A stretch of 14,455 nt of DNA, taken from IMG/VR virus record IMGVR_UViG_2537561689_000014. One strand, given 5' to 3'. The notes beneath the pieces were generated by a model. That model searched no databases. It was given only the letters and a program-made list of their open reading frames with translations, and was not told the DNA's origin. This document shows positions 6,886-14,455 of this stretch, in pieces (positions within the stretch are counted from its first letter, which is position 1; every line of letters starts with the position of its first letter). This DNA comes from a virus. Lineage: Duplodnaviria > Heunggongvirae > Uroviricota > Caudoviricetes. Position numbers and translations under genes: made by a program.

Positions 6886-7018
6886 TTTTTGGGACTCCTG
6901 GCTGATTAAGTATGTCGATAAGGCGTTTCCATCCGTCACGTAATTTACGGGTGATTCGTTCAAGTAAAGATTCGGAAGGGCAGCCAGCAACAGGCCACCC
7001 TGCAATGGCATATTGCAT
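6854..7018 (-). CDS. cIII: CIII (FtsH inhibitor that stabilises CII-type activators)
   Basis: Translated by hand, since it is below the track cut-off: [54 protein letters not shown] (54 aa), recognised as lambda CIII. Start ATG at 7018, stop at 6854-6856. Confidence 0.85.
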   Translation of the reverse strand: MQYAIAGWPVAGCPSESLLERITRKLRDGWKRLIDILNQPGVPKNGSNTYGYPD

Positions 7019-7090
7019 GGTGTGCTCCTTATTTATACATAACGAAAAACGCCTCGAGTGAAGCGTTATTGGTATGCGGTAACGCCGCGC

Positions 7091-7479: not shown

Positions 7480-7505
7480 AAAAAATCGCCCTCACATTGG
7501 AGGGC
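7480..7505 (-). terminator. Intrinsic terminator on the minus strand upstream of ea10 (tL2-like position)
   Basis: Hairpin GCCCTC-acattg-GAGGGC at 7488-7505; on the minus strand it is followed by ATTTTTT. Confidence 0.45.
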
Positions 7506-7719
7506 AAAGAAGATTTCCAATAATCAGAACAAGTCGGCTCCTGTTTAGTTACGAGCGACATTGCTCAGTGTATTCACTCGTTGGAATGAATACACAGTGC
7601 AGTGTTTATTAGTATGCCTGTCTTTTAACCACATCAGGCTCGGTGGTTCTCGTGTACCCCTACAGCGAGAAATCGGATAAACTCTATTCACCCCTACAGA
7701 GAGCAAAAGAGAAACGCCG

Positions 7720-8301
7720 ATGAACAACTCATGGTGGCAGGAACTAATGCATTTTTTCCTGCAAGGAATGACACTTAAACAGTTGATTCATATGCTAATC
7801 ATCCTGATCATATTGATTATTGTTATGCCTGTAAGCGTAAAAGAATGGATAAACCTGCATAATCCAGAAATCCTTCCTCATTACTGGATGTATTACATCC
7901 TGTTGTTTTGCGTTAGCTATGTGCTTAACGGCGTTGTTAATTCCGCTTATCACGCTGTGACTGAAAGAATTGAGATATTCGCTGCTCAGAAGCGCAAATC
8001 TAAAGAAGAGAAATACGTGCAAGATTTGTTTGATTCGTTAACTCTTGGAGAAAGAGCGTATTTGGCATTCGCTGTAGCCGCTAATAACCAGCTAAAGACA
8101 GAAAAGGGAAGCCCTGAAGCAATCTCATTGCTCGAAAAAGGGCTTCTTATTCGGGTACCTTCTGCTACTGGATATCCTGAAATCGACCGTTTTGTTATCC
8201 CGGAACGCTATAGAAATGAGTGCTACATTAGGTTTGCTGGGAAGAAAGACAGTCTTATGGATGAACTTATCGCTCAGGATAAGCATGGCAAAAACAAGTA
8301 A
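7720..8301 (+). CDS. sieB: SieB-like superinfection exclusion protein (membrane protein)
   Basis: 193-aa ORF MNNSWWQELMHFFLQGMTLKQLIHMLIILIILIIVMPVSVKEWINLHNPEILPHYWMYYILLFCVSYVLNGVV... with N-terminal hydrophobic helices. On the strand opposite to, and convergent with, the N-type gene, as sieB is in lambda. Confidence 0.8.
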   Translation: MNNSWWQELMHFFLQGMTLKQLIHMLIILIILIIVMPVSVKEWINLHNPEILPHYWMYYILLFCVSYVLNGVVNSAYHAVTERIEIFAAQKRKSKEEKYVQDLFDSLTLGERAYLAFAVAANNQLKTEKGSPEAISLLEKGLLIRVPSATGYPEIDRFVIPERYRNECYIRFAGKKDSLMDELIAQDKHGKNK

Positions 8302-8317
8302 TTAGCAAATTAATTTA

Positions 8318-8590
8318 TCATCTCGCCGTCAGTTGTTTTGATTTCCGGTAGCCTGCCGCGTAAATGGCTACGTTTGGCAGGCAAATACTTCCACTGCATT
8401 CATCTGCCTTCTTGCAGCGAAGGCTTCCGAGTGATGCTGCTTTGTCTGCTCTGACGCAACCAGAGAGCTTTAGCGCAATTTTTCGCGCCAGTCGCTGTTC
8501 TTGCATTGCCTGCTCACGTTGAGCCTGTCTGCGTGCTCTGCGGCGATTTCTGGCGTTATTGTCAGCCAGATATGTAATGACTACTGCCAT
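8318..8590 (-). CDS. N-family transcription antitermination protein (not lambda N)
   Basis: 90-aa ORF MAVVITYLADNNARNRRRARRQAQREQAMQEQRLARK... with an N-terminal arginine-rich motif. First gene downstream of the pL-like promoter and nutL. GGAGGT Shine-Dalgarno upstream of the start. Confidence 0.7.
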   Translation of the reverse strand: MAVVITYLADNNARNRRRARRQAQREQAMQEQRLARKIALKLSGCVRADKAASLGSLRCKKADECSGSICLPNVAIYAAGYRKSKQLTAR

Positions 8591-8697
8591 GTTGACCTCC
8601 GATGATTAACTTTGGCGGTGACGCGCCGGGTGCTTATCTTCCGGTTGCCGTCGTGCAGCTGCACTTCACGTCACCCCAAAGCCAACTACTCTTTGGT

Positions 8698-8738
8698 TCC
8701 CGCATTTCGGCGGGACAATCCCATCAATGTTAAAGAGC
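8698..8738 (-). promoter_or_regulatory. nutL: boxA (8728-8738) and boxB hairpin (8698-8715), read on the minus strand
   Basis: Minus-strand GCTCTTTAACA (boxA-like) followed 12 nt later by the hairpin TCCCGC-CGAAAT-GCGGGA. The same 18-nt hairpin recurs at nutR (9852-9869). Confidence 0.6.
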
Positions 8739-8775
8739 CTGCCAATCTGTTCCGTTTGGCTACCAGCGTCCTGCC

Positions 8776-8868
8776 GATGACTTAAATTTAAGATTTCTTT
8801 AACTATTGGTCAAGAGTGTTTTTGAAGAAAACTTAAATTTTGTTGCGAAGCTTAAGTTTTGCTTTGAT
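8776..8868 (-). promoter_or_regulatory. pL/oL region: leftward early promoter with P22-type operator sites
   Basis: Minus-strand -35 TTGACC (8808-8813), 17-nt spacer, -10 TAAATT (8785-8790). Operator-like pseudo-palindromes with TTAAG half-sites: ATTTAAGatttCTTTAAC at 8786-8803 and GCTTAAG...CTTTGAT at 8850-8868. Confidence 0.55.
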
Positions 8869-8880
8869 TTTTAAAGGAAA

Positions 8881-8902
8881 GAAAAAAAGGGGCGAATGCC
8901 CC
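8881..8902 (-). terminator. Intrinsic terminator immediately after the repressor gene
   Basis: Minus-strand GGGGC-attc-GCCCC followed by TTTTTTTC (plus-strand gaaaaaaaggggcgaatgcccc), abutting the repressor stop at 8903. Confidence 0.6.
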
Positions 8903-9553
8903 TTATGGAAGGTTTGCTATTTTTGCATCGACAACTACACCGATGATTTTGCAGTTCCCGTTGATCTCAATCATCGGATATTGTGGGTTAAGTGGTTTTA
9001 GAAACCTTCTGCCAGCATCAATAACTAACTTCTTGAAAGTTGCCTCGTTTTCTCCTTCGAGCTTTGCCACTACCAGCTTCCCATTACGAGGTTCTACTTC
9101 AGGATCGACTAGTATTATCATCCCTTCCGGGATGCTAAGACCGGCTGGAGCCGTCATCGAATCACCCTTTACGTCCAGCCAAAACGAATCTTCTGAACAA
9201 TCTACGGTTGTATCGTACCAGTTATCTATTGCACGCTTATGATATGGCTCTACAGCTTCCATCCAACATCCTGCGCTTACCCAACTAATTAGAGGATACG
9301 AACCTCTTGGATCATGCCTGCTGTGATAGGCAATGTTTGAAAGACTATCTTCTCCTTTCAACAAGTAATCAGGGGAGCACTGTAAAGCCTTGGCTAAAGC
9401 CAATAGGTTTTCGCCATTGGGCTCAGTTTCAGAACGCTCCCATTGGGAAATAGCAACATTAGACACGCCAACCATCTTGCCGAGGGCAGCCTGCCTAATC
9501 TTAAGTTCTTTTCTGCGAGCGCGAATACGCTCACCCATCAGTTGTGTATTCAT
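8903..9553 (-). CDS. c2: Prophage repressor, P22 C2-type (HTH N-terminal domain plus S24/LexA-like autocleavage domain)
   Basis: 216-aa ORF MNTQLMGERIRARRKELKIRQAALGKMVGVSNVAISQWERSETEPNGENLLALAKALQCSPDYLLKG... with the GDSM serine motif and a downstream Lys (VVAKLEG). Near-identical over its length to the P22 c2 repressor as I recall it. Confidence 0.95.
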   Translation of the reverse strand: MNTQLMGERIRARRKELKIRQAALGKMVGVSNVAISQWERSETEPNGENLLALAKALQCSPDYLLKGEDSLSNIAYHSRHDPRGSYPLISWVSAGCWMEAVEPYHKRAIDNWYDTTVDCSEDSFWLDVKGDSMTAPAGLSIPEGMIILVDPEVEPRNGKLVVAKLEGENEATFKKLVIDAGRRFLKPLNPQYPMIEINGNCKIIGVVVDAKIANLP

Positions 9554-9633
9554 AGTTAAGACATCTTAAATAAACTTGACTTAAGATTCCTTTGATAGAT
9601 AATTTAAGTGTTCTTTAATTTCGGGGCGAGTCT
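9554..9633. promoter_or_regulatory. oR/pR/pRM region with three 18-bp operators
   Basis: Three pseudo-palindromes of the form ANTNAAG-N4-CTTNANT: AGTTAAGacatCTTAAAT (9554-9571), ACTTAAGattcCTTTGAT (9579-9596) and ATTTAAGtgttCTTTAAT (9602-9619), with 23-25 bp centre spacing. pR -35 TTGACT (9576-9581) and -10 GATAAT (9598-9603) point toward cro. Confidence 0.75.
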
Positions 9634-9819
9634 ATGTACAAGAAAGATGTTATCGACCACTTCGGAACCCAGCGTGCGGTAGCTAAAGCGTTAGGCATTA
9701 GCGATGCAGCAGTCTCTCAGTGGAAGGAAGTCATCCCAGAGAAAGACGCCTATCGACTGGAAGTCGTTACAGCTGGCGCCCTGAAGTATCAAGAAAGTGC
9801 TTATCGCAAAGCGGCATAA
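9634..9819 (+). CDS. cro: Cro (P22-type)
   Basis: 61-aa ORF MYKKDVIDHFGTQRAVAKALGISDAAVSQWKEVIPEKDAYRLEVVTAGALKYQESAYRKAA with a helix-turn-helix. First gene of the rightward operon. Confidence 0.9.
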   Translation: MYKKDVIDHFGTQRAVAKALGISDAAVSQWKEVIPEKDAYRLEVVTAGALKYQESAYRKAA

Positions 9820-9826
9820 GCAAATT

Positions 9827-9870
9827 GCTCTTTAACAGTCATGGTCCTTATTCCCGCCGAAATGCGGGAA
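9827..9870 (+). promoter_or_regulatory. nutR: boxA (9827-9837) and boxB hairpin (9852-9869)
   Basis: GCTCTTTAACA followed 14 nt later by TCCCGC-CGAAAT-GCGGGA, the same boxA and boxB sequences as nutL. Confidence 0.6.
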
Positions 9871-9927
9871 TACAACGCGCATCAGTTGGTGCGTATAACT
9901 TCTTATTTGTTAAGGAAATACTTACAT

Positions 9928-11140: not shown

Positions 11141-11838
11141 AAAACATCGCCGCACAGATGGTTAACTTTGACCGTGAGCAGATGCGTCGGATCGCCAACA
11201 ACATGCCGGAACAGTACGACGAAAAGCCACAGGTACAGCAGGTAGCGCAGATCATCAACGGTGTGTTCAGCCAGTTACTGGCAACTTTCCCGGCGAGTCT
11301 GGCTAACCGTGACCAGAACGAACTGAACGAAATCCGCCGCCAGTGGGTTCTGGCTTTCCGGGAAAACGGGATCACCACAATGGAACAGGTTAACGCAGGA
11401 ATGCGCGTAGCCCGTCGGCAGAACCGACCATTCCTGCCATCACCCGGGCAGTTTGTTGCATGGTGCCGGGAAGAAGCATCCGTTATCGCCGGACTGCCAA
11501 ACGTCAGCGAGCTGGTTGATATGGTTTACGAGTATTGCCGGAAGCGAGGCCTGTATCCGGATGCGGAGTCTTATCCGTGGAAATCAAACGCGCACTACTG
11601 GCTGGTTACCAACCTGTATCAGAACATGCGGGCCAATGCGCTTACTGATGCGGAATTACGCCGTAAGGCCGCAGATGAGCTTGTCCATATGACTGCGAGA
11701 ATTAACCGTGGTGAGGCGATCCCTGAACCAGTAAAACAACTTCCTGTCATGGGCGGTAGACCTCTAAATCGTGCACAGGCTCTGGCGAAGATCGCAGAAA
11801 TTAAAGCTAAGTTCGGACTGAAAGGAGCAAGTGTATGA
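11137..11838 (+). CDS. P: Replication protein P (DnaB helicase loader)
   Basis: 233-aa ORF MKNIAAQMVNFDREQMRRIANNMPEQYDEKPQVQQVAQIINGVFSQ..., recognised as lambda P. Its start overlaps the O stop. Confidence 0.95.
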   Translation: MKNIAAQMVNFDREQMRRIANNMPEQYDEKPQVQQVAQIINGVFSQLLATFPASLANRDQNELNEIRRQWVLAFRENGITTMEQVNAGMRVARRQNRPFLPSPGQFVAWCREEASVIAGLPNVSELVDMVYEYCRKRGLYPDAESYPWKSNAHYWLVTNLYQNMRANALTDAELRRKAADELVHMTARINRGEAIPEPVKQLPVMGGRPLNRAQALAKIAEIKAKFGLKGASV

Positions 11839-12008
11839 TGGGCAAAGAGGCAATTATTCATTACCTGGGGACGCACAAGAGCTTCTGTGCGCCGGACGTT
11901 GCTGCGACAACAGGTGTGACATTAACCAGCATAAATCAGGCTGCGGCAAAAATGGCGCGGGCAGGAATCCTGGTCATTGATGGTAAGGTCTGGCGAACGT
12001 TTGTTTAA
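11835..12008 (+). pseudogene. ren: Truncated ren (57 codons instead of about 96)
   Basis: ATG overlaps the P stop (ATGA), as in lambda. MMGKEAIIHYLGTHKSFCAPDVAATTGVTLTSINQAAAKMARAGILVIDGKVWRTFV* resembles lambda Ren up to about residue 55, then hits a stop where unrelated AT-rich DNA begins. Confidence 0.65.
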
Positions 12009-12154
12009 CGGTTAGCTACTCAGGATGATAGGGCGGGGCAAGTGAGTATGAAGCGGATTTTCAGGAATGCCATCAGAGTTTGGAAATAAAGTGGGTTTTC
12101 TAGTGGCAAGAGACTTGATAATATTTAGTTCTTTGAATCCAAGGAGATAGGGTT

Positions 12155-12649
12155 ATGAGAAAATTTATTTTAGCCTTTGTTATAAGTGCCTCGTTTACAG
12201 CAAATGCTGGTGTAGAGAAGTTAGGGCCGTGGATAACAAAGTCTGAGATAAATAAAATGACTGACCAGACTGACTTTGTGGCCCTTAATTTATCACCAGA
12301 TTCATATAACAAAGCAGGTACTGATCGTGCAACTTCACTGGTGTTGCGTTGTAGTGATAACAAAACAGATGCCTATTTATCATTCAATGATTATATGGGT
12401 TCGGACAACCCAAGAATTACAGTGCGGTTAGATGGCGGAAAGCCGGTCAAGAGTGTTTGGGGAGGTGGGGAAGGCGGTGATTCTGCATTTGCTCCACAAC
12501 CAATACAATTTATAAAGACCTTGGCTAAGCATAAAAAAGCTATTTTTGGGTTTGAACCTTATGGATCAACTATGCAAGTAGTTGAGTTTGACTTGTCTGA
12601 GATTGATAAGGTTGTGGAAAAAATTTCACAGTCTTGCAATTGGAAATGA
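12155..12649 (+). CDS. Hypothetical secreted protein with a Sec signal peptide; AT-rich accessory gene
   Basis: 164-aa ORF with AAGGAG Shine-Dalgarno 8 nt upstream. N-terminus MRKFILAFVISASFTANA-GVEK is a signal peptide with an AxA cleavage site and no lipobox. Two Cys in the mature part. Followed by a strong terminator. Confidence 0.7.
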   Translation: MRKFILAFVISASFTANAGVEKLGPWITKSEINKMTDQTDFVALNLSPDSYNKAGTDRATSLVLRCSDNKTDAYLSFNDYMGSDNPRITVRLDGGKPVKSVWGGGEGGDSAFAPQPIQFIKTLAKHKKAIFGFEPYGSTMQVVEFDLSEIDKVVEKISQSCNWK

Positions 12650-12666
12650 CAAAAAAATTTCATATG

Positions 12667-12694
12667 AACCCAGTTTGCGCTGGGTTTTTTATTT
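12667..12694 (+). terminator. Rho-independent terminator
   Basis: AACCCAG-tttgcg-CTGGGTT followed by TTTTTTATTT, 18 nt after the stop at 12647-12649. Confidence 0.7.
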
Positions 12695-13780
12695 CAGTAG
12701 CCAATAATGCATTCAAAATCTCTTACTTGAGAAACGGCCTATTTGAGATTTCAGTCGTGGCAGGATGATCAGTTGATTCGAGTATTGACGCATTTGCGTT
12801 CGGAGCGATTACAGTAGATTGTAAATAATAATGAGAAACACATAGCCACCCCGTGGTATTGAAACCATATAATGTTGGATTTGAAAACAGATCTTTTCCC
12901 ATGTATTAATAACTACATCCCCGCGAGTGATTCAAAAAGGAGGGCCCAATTTTGTCCGAGTTTTTGTATTCCCCCGCATGCCGCTGCGGAGCACTACATC
13001 TGAGTGTCTGACTAGGGGATAAAATTAGACTGGATAGTGAGAAGAAAGTGGCGCGCTAGGCTGTGCCGAGTGCTACCAGTACACCTTGGGGGTGTGCAGC
13101 TTTCGCCGAGACTGTAGTGGGTATCGGTTAATGCACGAAAAACCGAGAGGTCAGACAACCAATTTGCCGTAGGATTGTTTCCGGTGCGATACCGGTCTAC
13201 TAACTGAAAGCAATGCGAAAAAGCATAAACTCGGTCCTTCAGTCGCCCTACACACTATTTACTAAGAAGGGCTGAAGCATGGATACAATTATTACATGGA
13301 TGGGAGATCGTCTGTTGGGGGGACACAAAAATCCGATCTGCGGCAGATGGCGATCACTGGATTAACTTCCGCGATTTGTTCAACAATTTTGTACACTGAA
13401 AAATTAAAACATGGTGAGCCTATTAACCCAAACGAAGAAGAAAAACTTTATAGGCTTTGGTATGAAGGAAACGCTTGAAAGAATAAAGCACAATTAAAAC
13501 CTTTGATTTGCGATAATCAACTTGCCATAATTAAGTAATCGGAGTCTGAACAACTCCGGTGACTTCTGCGCTAAACGGGGACGTTTATGCGCACATACAA
13601 TCCAAACTATCTTCTCCTTTCACAGATGCAGAAATGCACCTGCAATTCTTTGCATCTAGCGTTTGACCTCTGCGGAGGTGAAGCGTGAACCTCCCACAAG
13701 ACGGCATCAAATTACATCGCGGCAACTTCACCGCTATCGGCCAGCAGATCCAGCCTTATCTGGAGGAAGGCAAATGCTTT

Positions 13781-14455
13781 GTAAGCGTCAACGGAGCACC
13801 GTATTGACGCTTATTTATTGGTGAGTACTACGTTCCATGGCAGGAGTTCGTCAACACGGTTGGAGGGCCATTCCGGCAGTACGCTCAGAATATGGCGCAG
13901 ATACGCTTCCGGATCGATACCGTTCAGTCGGCAGGTGCCGATCAGCCCGTACAGCAGTGCTCCACGCTCGCCGCCGTGATCGCTACCGAAGAACACGTAA
14001 TTTTTCTTTCCGAGACAGACTGCACGAAGCGCTCTTTCCGCTGTGTTATTGTCCACCTCCGCCAGACCGTCATCACTGTAATAACAGAGGGCGTCCCACT
14101 GATTCAGTACATAGCTGAACGCTTCGCCCAGTCTGGATTTTTTCGACAGCGTGCCATTCTTCTCCACCATCCATTCATGCAGCGACGTCAGTAACGCTTT
14201 GCTTCGCTGCTGCCTGGCTGCAAGACGCTCTGACTCTGGTAATCCCCGTATTTCATTCTCGATGGCGTACAGTTCACTGATTCGCTTCAGGGCTTCTTCT
14301 GCCGTCGCACTTTTGCTGCTGATGTATACATCGTGGATTTTTCTCCGGGCATGAGCCCAGCACGCAACTTCTGTCAGCGCACTACCTTCACGTTCTGCAC
14401 TGAACAGCCTGTCATAACCTGTGAACGCATCCGCCTGCAGGATACCCCGGAAGGG
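13781..14455 (-). mobile_element. IS66-family insertion sequence, 3' part only; the element continues past the window end
   Basis: Transposase C-terminus open to the window edge. Putative terminal sequence starting GTAAGCG at 13781, 30 bp beyond the transposase stop, consistent with the GTAA termini of IS66-family elements. The other end is not in the window. Confidence 0.7.
13811..14455 (-). CDS. IS66-family transposase (TnpC), C-terminal fragment; 5' end outside window
   Basis: The minus-strand frame is open from the window edge to the stop at 13811-13813: ...FTGYDRLFSAEREGSALTEVACWAHARRKIHDVYISSKSATAEEALKRISELYAIENEIRGLPESERLAARQQ...MVEKNGTLSKKSRLGEAF...NNTAERALRAVCLGKKNYVFFGSDHGGERGALLYGLIGTCRLNGIDPEAYLRHILSVLPEWPSNRVDELLPWNVVLTNK. 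The CWAHARRK and NNxAER motifs are as recalled for IS66 TnpC. Confidence 0.85.
   Translation of the reverse strand, partial: PFRGILQADAFTGYDRLFSAEREGSALTEVACWAHARRKIHDVYISSKSATAEEALKRISELYAIENEIRGLPESERLAARQQRSKALLTSLHEWMVEKNGTLSKKSRLGEAFSYVLNQWDALCYYSDDGLAEVDNNTAERALRAVCLGKKNYVFFGSDHGGERGALLYGLIGTCRLNGIDPEAYLRHILSVLPEWPSNRVDELLPWNVVLTNK

Follow-up and report, generated by a model that had tools for sequence, protein, structure and literature searches.

The window, which here means the whole 14,455-nt stretch of DNA that we analyzed, carries genes in the canonical order sieB–N–cI–cro–cII–O–P. A cI-type repressor gene (HTH plus S24 peptidase; 8903–9553, minus strand) lies between two putative N-utilization sites, nutL and nutR, and cro, identified from the ORF list and a family search as a member of the P22_Cro family, follows at 9634–9819 on the plus strand. 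A promoter scan revealed a pL-like promoter at 8785–8813 on the minus strand (−35 TTGACC, 17-nt spacer, −10 TAAATT) and a pR-like promoter at 9576–9603 on the plus strand (TTGACT, 16-nt spacer, GATAAT). Alignment to the annotated pL start of phage 21 would place the start of the pL transcript at about 8778, with boxA of nutL at about +41, and boxA of nutR starts 8 nt past the cro stop codon. The pL operon opens with N (8318–8590, minus strand), which is preceded by a GGAGG ribosome-binding site and encodes a 90-residue protein beginning MAVVITYLADNNARNRRRARRQAQRE.

The initial annotation had placed the same 18-nt hairpin and the same boxA on both strands, each downstream of an early promoter, and we found this to be so. 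The window holds exactly two copies of the hairpin string TCCCGCCGAAATGCGGGA, at 8698–8715 on the minus strand and at 9852–9869 on the plus strand, and exactly two of the boxA string GCTCTTTAACA, at 8728–8738 (minus) and 9827–9837 (plus). Among 200 dinucleotide shuffles the hairpin string gave no match, even with two mismatches allowed; the mean for boxA was 0.21, and 6 of the 200 reached two matches. The boxA of either site (GCUCUUUAACA) equals the corresponding annotated boxA-L or boxA-R of phage 21, lies inside the annotated nutL of phage HK620 and in the matching stretch of HK620 nutR, and by homology would be a site for NusB and NusE. Only boxA and boxB are common to nutL and nutR, the spacers between them being unlike (12 nt, TTGATGGGATTG, versus 14 nt, GTCATGGTCCTTAT) and the downstream flanks differing.

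Folding, which had been proposed as a check on the hairpins, gave for both copies a 6-bp stem and a 6-nt loop, UCCCGC-CGAAAU-GCGGGA, the same boxB as in the annotated nutL and nutR of HK620. The fold at nutL has an energy of −10.5 kcal/mol (z −2.95); at nutR the core at 9852–9869 lies within a longer hairpin (9849–9872) whose stem extends to 9 bp (−13.7 kcal/mol, z −4.6), and both hairpins are kept when the whole leaders are folded. For the hexaloop C-GAAA-U, the most likely arrangement is a GNRA tetraloop with a closing C·U mismatch. Base-pair covariation for the stem is unobtainable because the core hairpin is invariant across some 200 copies, and an Rfam scan of the window detected the cIII thermoregulator only, assigning neither nut site to a family. 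The idea that these perfect 6-bp inverted repeats on either side of the immunity region are DNA palindromes bound by a protein, or intrinsic terminators, rather than N-binding RNA sites is very improbable, and we reject it: no U-tract follows either hairpin (ACCAAAGAG past nutL, AUACAACG past nutR), the terminator scan called neither of them, the two copies bear the asymmetric loop in opposite orientations on the DNA, which gives both early transcripts the same RNA, each hairpin lies 12–14 nt past a boxA at a position homologous to a phage 21 boxB, and the repressor operators are elsewhere, at the promoters, as annotated in phage 21 and HK620.

Several further elements flank the nut sites. The leader of N contains a long interrupted duplex (8605–8686, minus strand), seen both in a single-sequence fold and in an alignment fold with the leaders of phage 21 and HK629, in which the helix is kept and five pairs change on both sides. 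We take its position to be that of the processing hairpin in the lambda N leader. The 5′ arm of the duplex holds a boxC-like string, GGCUUUGGGGUG (8672–8683), that is also present in lambda nutL. A second hairpin (9877–9894, plus strand) lies directly past nutR, in the tR1 region ahead of cII; it may have a role there and resembles one found after nutR in P22. A Rho-dependent tR1 is not recognizable from sequence. Two intrinsic terminator-like sites were seen downstream of the nut sites. One of these, in the pL operon (7486–7507, minus strand), lies upstream of the ea10/DUF2528 gene, has an almost identical counterpart annotated as a terminator in phage 21, and is likely to be a read-through target of N-modified polymerase. 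The other is a strong terminator-like hairpin in the pR operon (12666–12687, plus strand) that separates the replication genes from the nin/Q region. Neither an HK629-type oop RNA nor the inserts present in relatives turned up when the window was searched for them, and Rfam returned nothing credible for the insert of about 290 nt in those relatives.

The 90-residue product had been described as N-like with an arginine-rich N-terminus, a description that family searches and a segment alignment bear out. It belongs to Pfam family PF25694, N_peptide (E = 8.8e-16; a score of 58.7 bits, where the cutoff is 27.9), matches PHROG 271, "anti-termination protein N-like" (3e-33), and aligns over its full length with P22 gp24 (E = 2e-14). 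RefSeq labels it "hypothetical protein," no NCBIfam model matches it, and a PDB sequence search retrieved no N-related chain, only a chance match to RNF168. Seven arginines fall within residues 14–25 (RNRRRARRQAQR), which align with the A-x-x-R-R-x-x-R-R motif of lambda, P22, phage 21, and VT2-Sakai. The protein is made up of three segments: an arginine-rich segment of HK620 type, a center of phage 21 type, and a C-terminus of P22/Stx-phage type.

The GenBank record of HK620 (NC_002730) annotates boxA–spacer–boxB strings identical to those in the window as "nutL/nutR; putative N-utilization." The N/nut pair is therefore not new, and the novelty implied by the initial annotation, which had itself said that identity with a well-characterized nut site of a named phage would make the hairpin known rather than new, has to be given up; we confirm that the pair is an already known one, correctly read. 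The whole nutL string (42 nt) is identical in HK620, HK630, HK140, CUS-3, N7, JEP4, and IME10; in nutR of this group boxA and boxB are identical to those of the window, with small differences outside both. HK620, HK630, HK140, mEpX2, and CUS-3, which have identical nut sites, are viable phages, a point in favor of a working antitermination module. HK620 N is likewise 90 residues long, has the same motif (RNRRRARRQAQRE), and is about 96% identical to window N, which has T2A, D11N, and a few C-terminal substitutions; over residues 1–30 the two match at 28 of 30 positions. The window thus has the hallmarks of the HK620 type, namely boxB UCCCGCCGAAAUGCGGGA at both nut sites together with residues 1–30 of the type MxVVITYLADxNARNRRRARRQAQREQAMQ. 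The leader and the positions within the pL and pR operons also agree, whereas the surroundings differ: in the window the pair is carried on an immunity cassette like that of P22 c2/CUS-3, within a lambda-type prophage at the lambda attachment site, and HK620 is a P22-like podovirus with its own cI cassette.

About 9% of complete E. coli genomes carry the same N/nut pair. Among species-representative genomes, the only ones with the nut pattern were an Escherichia sp. and two MAGs, the latter probably mis-binned. Our literature search did not recover the exact boxB string, nor a binding or structural study of the C-GAAA-U boxB, HK620 sites included, which does not prove that there is none; for boxB with HK620 or CUS-3 it yielded only the genome paper of phage epsilon34, and for antitermination in HK630 or HK140 and for the nut site of 933W nothing relevant.

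How does this pair compare with the better-known ones? The window hairpins occupy the positions of the annotated nutL and nutR boxB of phage 21, in otherwise homologous sequence. Phage 21 has the same boxA, homologous nut flanks and N leader, and an N whose central segment is identical to that of window N (LARKIALKLSGCVRADKAASLGSLRCKK), and in both phages boxB has a 6-nt loop with a pyrimidine at each end of a 4-nt turn. The boxB sequences nevertheless differ, in the turn (UAAC in phage 21, GAAA in the window) and in the stem, as do the arginine-rich segments (GTAKSRYKARRAELIAERR versus NARNRRRARRQAQREQ) and the C-termini, lambda-like in phage 21 and P22-like in the window. The window therefore lacks the C-UAAC-C hexaloop and the arginine-rich segment that mark the phage 21 class. 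The phage 21 loop CUAACC, whose complex with N is represented by PDB 1NYB, forms a GNRA-like turn with a closing C-C pair (PMC12550061), a parallel to the fold that we propose for C-GAAA-U.

Lambda and P22 have the same architecture as the window, boxA–spacer–boxB with N first in pL, and the N proteins of all three carry an A-x-(T/N)-R-R-x-x-R-R motif. That the window boxB is unlike those of lambda (GCCCUGAAGAAGGGC / GCCCUGAAAAAGGGC) and P22 (GCGCUGACAAAGCGC / CCGCCGACAACGCGG), as originally claimed, held up on comparison. The loops of lambda boxB (GAAGA/GAAAA) and of P22 nutL (GACAA) are 5 nt long, extrude one base, and are closed by a U-A pair, whereas the window has GAAA between C and U, and window N has no equivalent of the lambda tryptophan W18. 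By the requirements given in PMC12027372 the lambda class has a U-A-closed GNRNA pentaloop; the window loop is CGAAAU on a C-G closing pair. The P22 class has a GACAA pentaloop with an extruded C, where the window has GAAA, although the stem is nearly that of P22 nutR (CCGCC...GCGG), and the C-terminus of P22 N is shared too. The closest relative of the arginine-rich segment is that of VT2-Sakai N (TAASRRRARRAN). The Stx2 phages 933W and VT2-Sakai have in common with the window the RRRARR core, a GAAA boxB loop, and an N C-terminus reading CLPNVA(L/I)YAAGYRKSKQLTAR. Unlike the window, VT2-Sakai has a plain, U-A-closed tetraloop on a UGGCU stem (boxB UGGCU-GAAA-AGCCA) and an N with another center and greater length (114 residues as annotated).

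The relationship between the arginine-rich segment and boxB could be followed across 157 N genes that share the phage 21-type center. At nutL, 100 loci paired an HK620-type segment with an HK620-type boxB, 54 paired phage 21 with phage 21, and none was crossed, counts that represent lineages of closely related loci rather than independent events; the corresponding numbers at nutR were 95, 51, and 0. Meanwhile, both arginine-rich types occurred with all three C-terminal types, and the same N/nut pair was found on at least three immunity cassettes, with nutL–nutR spacings of about 1140, 1680, and 1725 nt. In phage mEpX2, residues 1–30 are joined to a P22-like body, and the same boxB is present at both nut sites; these residues are the sole N segment common to every phage with this boxB that we examined, mEpX2 included. 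A protein search with the first 40 residues, directed at finding the arginine-rich segment on other N bodies, returned only nine short fragments. As judged from sequence, then, the arginine-rich segment and the boxB type are always co-inherited, strictly so, and the remainder of N reassorts freely. Codons 1–30 (8501–8590, minus strand; MAVVITYLADNNARNRRRARRQAQREQAMQ) are accordingly our candidate for the boxB-specificity module, and the strict co-inheritance points to binding of boxB by N.

We conclude, with a probability of roughly 0.9, that the region is the early antitermination module, of HK620 type, of a lambda-like E. coli prophage. From the sequence anatomy, family membership, positional homology, and strict co-inheritance we infer RNA binding, Nus-factor contacts, and read-through, by analogy with lambda, P22, phage 21, and H-19B. 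Upon derepression, pL would transcribe nutL and then N. The arginine-rich N-terminus of N (residues 13–25 or so, inside the 30-residue module) would bind boxB in the nascent nutL and nutR RNAs, the adjacent boxA would recruit NusB/NusE, and the phage 21-type center and P22/H-19B-type C-terminus would contact NusA and RNA polymerase. Polymerase so modified would run past Rho-dependent termination in the tR1 region as well as past intrinsic terminators, including the sites at 7486–7507 (minus) and 12666–12687 (plus), allowing expression of recombination genes leftward and of replication, nin, and Q genes rightward. In H-19B, the arginine-rich motif recognizes nut, the C-terminal domain binds polymerase, and tR1 is Rho-dependent (PMC3526286).

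Does the HK620-type pair have a specificity of its own? The C-GAAA-U boxB might instead be one more GNRA-fold hairpin that lambda-, P22-, or 933W-type N proteins can also use, the pairing reflecting linkage rather than selectivity. All characterized boxB loops adopt GNRA-like folds (PMC12550061; PMC12027372), VT2-Sakai shares both RRRARR and GAAA with the window pair, and the stem matches that of P22 nutR. In the prophages L077 and L072 this N stands in tandem with one of lambda type, and the sole intact nutL is that of lambda; along with L013, they are relatives that keep this N without an intact cognate nutL, a point against the antitermination-module reading as a whole. Against shared use, none of the 154 paired loci is crossed, while the other N segments and the immunity cassette reassort, and the U-A closing pair that lambda N prefers (PMC12027372) is absent from the window boxB. 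We regard such shared use as unlikely. A tentative proposal, to which we give somewhat less than an even chance, is that the HK620-type pair is a structurally distinct fourth or fifth boxB solution in which a C·U-closed GNRA tetraloop would be recognized by an RRRARR peptide without the lambda tryptophan, and that it is orthogonal to the pairs of lambda, P22, and phage 21, hence usable as an extra RNA-tethering tag.

It is also conceivable, if unlikely, that in this strain the module is no more than an inert relic, its sequences intact but N and nut without current function in a defective prophage. The host prophage may indeed be defective: the nin region contains IS66, an IS100 copy lies past the lysis genes, a tail gene has an IS66-family element inside it, and ren is a frameshifted pseudogene. 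However, the genes N, cI, cro, cII, O, and P are intact, and so are the two promoters and the two nut sites; N and the nutL region match copies from other genomes and from viral contigs at 100% identity. A relic, moreover, would concern activity in one strain and not the identity of the element, which we continue to read as an HK620-type antitermination module.

Finally, we note that the module itself adds little new biology, being a textbook N/nut switch whose exact pair was already annotated in HK620. With RefSeq calling this N hypothetical and NCBIfam offering no matching model, some 500 complete E. coli genomes carry an unannotated antiterminator together with unannotated nut sites. On sequence evidence, natural reassortment would map the determinant of RNA specificity to residues 1–30 of N, and if the pair does prove to be a distinct recognition class, it could join the lambda and P22 tethering tools as an orthogonal peptide–RNA pair.

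The window contains the boxB 18-mer TCCCGCCGAAATGCGGGA in exactly two copies (8698-8715, minus strand; 9852-9869, plus strand), and 200 dinucleotide-preserving shuffles yielded no match even with two mismatches permitted. The boxA sequence GCTCTTTAACA is likewise present in exactly two copies (8728-8738, minus strand; 9827-9837, plus strand), which confirms the proposal of the initial annotation that nutL and nutR share the same hairpin and the same boxA. As had also been proposed, each site lies downstream of an early promoter: a promoter scan revealed a pL-like sequence at 8813-8785 (minus strand) and a pR-like sequence at 9576-9603 (plus strand). Alignment with the annotated pL start of phage 21 would place the start of the pL transcript at about 8778 and thus boxA-L at about +41, and boxA-R begins 8 nt after the cro stop codon. 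The spacer between boxA and the hairpin is 12 nt at nutL (TTGATGGGATTG) but 14 nt at nutR (GTCATGGTCCTTAT), and the flanks 3' of boxB are also unlike. Thus, boxA and boxB are conserved specifically rather than as parts of a longer duplication. Folding gave a 6-bp stem and a 6-nt loop, CGAAAU, at both sites (−10.5 kcal/mol, z = −2.95, at nutL; −13.7 kcal/mol, z = −4.6, at nutR, where the stem is lengthened to 9 bp), and both hairpins were retained when the entire pL leader or cro-cII interval was folded. Because the loop is asymmetric and the DNA copies are mutually inverted, the pL and pR transcripts carry the same RNA.

Two further structures lie near these sites. A conserved second hairpin, GCGCAUC-AGUU-GGUGCGU (9877-9894, plus strand), directly follows nutR on the 5' side of cII; it is resembled by a hairpin of P22, GCGCAUCAACGAAUGCGC, and may be part of the tR1/rut region. 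The N leader contains, 3' of boxB and 5' of the N ribosome-binding site, a long interrupted duplex (8605-8686, minus strand). It is retained, with several compensatory changes, in the leaders of phage 21 and HK629, and we take it to resemble the RNase III processing hairpin of the lambda N leader.

The first leftward gene (8318-8590, minus strand), an open reading frame with a GGAGG ribosome-binding site upstream, encodes the 90-aa protein that had been read as an N-family antiterminator with an arginine-rich N-terminus. This assignment is borne out by matches to Pfam PF25694 (N_peptide; 8.8e-16, over the gathering score) and PHROG 271 ("anti-termination protein N-like"; 3e-33) and by full-length alignment with P22 gp24 (E = 2e-14); the NCBIfam models searched gave no match. 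RefSeq labels the gene product "hypothetical protein" (WP_001398786.1), and the nut sites are likewise unannotated there. Alignment with relatives resolves N into three segments: residues 1-33, including the arginine-rich motif NARNRRRARRQAQRE, which are common to HK620, JEP4, N7, and CUS-3 but not to phage 21; residues 34-61 (LARKIALKLSGCVRADKAASLGSLRCKK), which are identical to phage 21 N; and a C-terminus (CLPNVAIYAAGYRKSKQLTAR) that is like those of P22 and the Stx phages and unlike that of phage 21 or lambda.

Set against known boxB classes, the window hairpin (CCCGC-C-GAAA-U-GCGGG) is distinct from those of lambda, P22, phage 21, and VT2-Sakai. It had been judged unlike the lambda and P22 elements, and rightly so: the lambda loops are GAAGA and GAAAA, both U-A closed, and the P22 loop is GACAA, U-A closed at nutL and present as C-GACAA-C on a CCGC stem at nutR. 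The stem of P22 nutR is almost equal to that of the window boxB, and the GAAA tetraloop of VT2-Sakai (933W type; UGGCU-GAAA-AGCCA) corresponds to the four central bases of the window loop; the arginine-rich segment of VT2-Sakai, TAASRRRARRAN, has an RRRARR core in common with the window N. The nut regions of phage 21, whose record (OL657228) has boxA-L, nutL, boxA-R, and nutR annotated, align with those of the window across the promoter, an identical boxA, and the N leader. At the position of boxB, however, phage 21 has another hairpin (CUCAAC-CUAACC-GUUGAG at nutL, CACCU-CUAACC-GGGUG at nutR), so that hairpin structure is retained and its sequence exchanged, together with exchange of the arginine-rich segment. 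The phage 21 hexaloop has been described as a GNRA-like UAAC turn with a closing C-C pair (PMC12550061, PDB 1NYB); by analogy, C-GAAA-U in the window is most likely a true GNRA tetraloop with a C·U mismatch as its closing pair. The U-A closing pair that lambda N prefers (PMC12027372) is missing from the window boxB, and this favors some selectivity.

Does boxB follow the arginine-rich segment among relatives? The sample consisted of 160 IMG/VR loci whose N proteins have a phage 21-type center, with named phages added; N genes were selected on their central motif, with a generic hairpin finder used to call hairpins downstream of boxA. At nutL, UCCCGC-CGAAAU-GCGGGA accompanied all 100 HK620-type N genes (those with arginine-rich residues 1-30 as in phage HK620) that had a detectable site, and the phage 21 boxB accompanied all 54 phage 21-type genes. 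At nutR, 95 HK620-type and 51 phage 21-type pairs were matched, and crossed pairs were found at neither site (Fisher 7e-43, a value that overstates independence because the loci are related). These counts support the proposal that N and nut form a cognate pair. More telling than the counts is the reassortment of all else: each arginine-rich type was found with all three C-terminal types of N, and the HK620-type pair was found on no fewer than three immunity cassettes, whose nutL and nutR sites are about 1140, 1680, and 1725 nt apart. The sequences 5' of boxA-R fall into two groups around a constant boxA-R (the segments were chosen by exact boxB, whose constancy there is by construction). The sharpest case of this pairing amid reassortment is mEpX2 (L177, 1843-2106), whose N is a natural chimera of HK620-type residues 1-30 with a P22-like center and C-terminus, and which has the HK620-type boxB at both nutL and nutR. 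Since boxB type tracks the arginine-rich segment while all else reassorts, mEpX2 included, these sequence comparisons point to N residues 1-30 as the likely determinant of boxB specificity.

Some relatives depart from this arrangement. Two IMG/VR prophages (L077, 2100-2500; L072, 130-530) carry tandem N genes, of which the first is lambda-type and accompanied by a lambda nutL and the second is HK620-type. The upstream boxB of L077 is chimeric, joining the left arm of the tL terminator to the right half of boxB (GCCCUCCGAAAUGCGGG) and leaving the second N without an intact cognate nutL. An insert of about 250-290 nt, placed precisely where boxB meets the N leader (start ...GGGAAC/TGAGTTTAACCAAACAGGAGGTGC, finish ...GAGAGTGTGAGT/CAAAGAG), was seen in L084 (about 635-880) and some 10 further IMG/VR loci; it is G+C-rich, has many inverted repeats, and had no Rfam match. 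CUS-3 (L002, 812-1010) and HK140 (L089, 2775-2985) have an insert of another kind, about 200 nt long, which lies between the N leader and the N ribosome-binding site and is annotated in the CUS-3 record solely as a mosaic "boundary sequence."

The mechanism that we propose for the window is the standard one. The N protein of H-19B, which has its C-terminal sequence type in common with the window N, recognizes nut through its arginine-rich motif and binds polymerase through its C-terminal domain, and H-19B tR1 is a Rho-dependent terminator overlapping nutR (PMC3526286). By inference, N would bind boxB in the nascent RNA, boxA would be bound by NusB/NusE, and the modified polymerase would transcribe past the tR1 region and intrinsic terminators. 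Candidates for the latter are 7486-7507 (minus strand), near-identical to an annotated phage 21 terminator, and 12666-12687 (plus strand).

The window is 100% identical to nucleotides 1158651-1173105 of E. coli strain 504237 (ETEC; NZ_CP025862.1), where it forms the left portion of a lambda-like prophage adjoining ybhC, a neighborhood that we take to be the attachment region of lambda. Its genes run in the order int, xis, exo, bet, gam, kil, cIII, ea10/DUF2528, sieB, N, cI, cro, cII, O, and P, followed rightward in the prophage by nin genes, Q (quuD), lysis genes, and lambda-type head and tail genes. This element is apparently degraded: ren carries a frameshift, and the right part is broken by three IS elements (window 11835-14455 and beyond, L172), namely IS66 (nin region, from 13811), IS100 (after the lysis genes), and an IS66-family element (within a tail gene). 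A strong terminator lies downstream of a gene labeled "TagO" (12155-12649), which points to insertion of an accessory gene. At the start of cIII, Rfam RF01804 (lambda cIII thermoregulator element) matches 6973-7031 (minus strand) with 88.5 bits.

Finally, the pair is not new, although the initial annotation had implied novelty. In the HK620 record (NC_002730/AF335538), the feature "nutL; putative N-utilization leftward" (7753-7794) is exactly GGCTCTTTAACATTGATGGGATTGTCCCGCCGAAATGCGGGA, the annotated "nutR" (9423-9468) contains the same boxA and boxB, and the 90-aa N is about 96% identical to that of the window. The window element is therefore an ordinary HK620-type N/nut module, already annotated. 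A 61-nt nutL segment is 100% identical in HK620, HK630, HK140, mEpX2, CUS-3, IME10, ECP1, N7, HF4s, Gally, and others (26 phage records in total) and occurs in 501 of 5426 complete E. coli genomes. Among species-representative genomes, it was found in Escherichia alone except for two suspicious MAGs of unrelated taxa (L174, Bacillales; L175, Segatella copri), whose short contigs with this E. coli phage nut region most likely reflect binning contamination. Among the papers available to our literature search, none contained the boxB string or dealt with HK620-type specificity, although earlier discussion may exist. What remains of interest is that N goes unannotated in RefSeq genomes though Pfam and PHROGs recognize it clearly, and that a class of arginine-rich segment and boxB for which we found no biochemical study in the literature searched is a common one.
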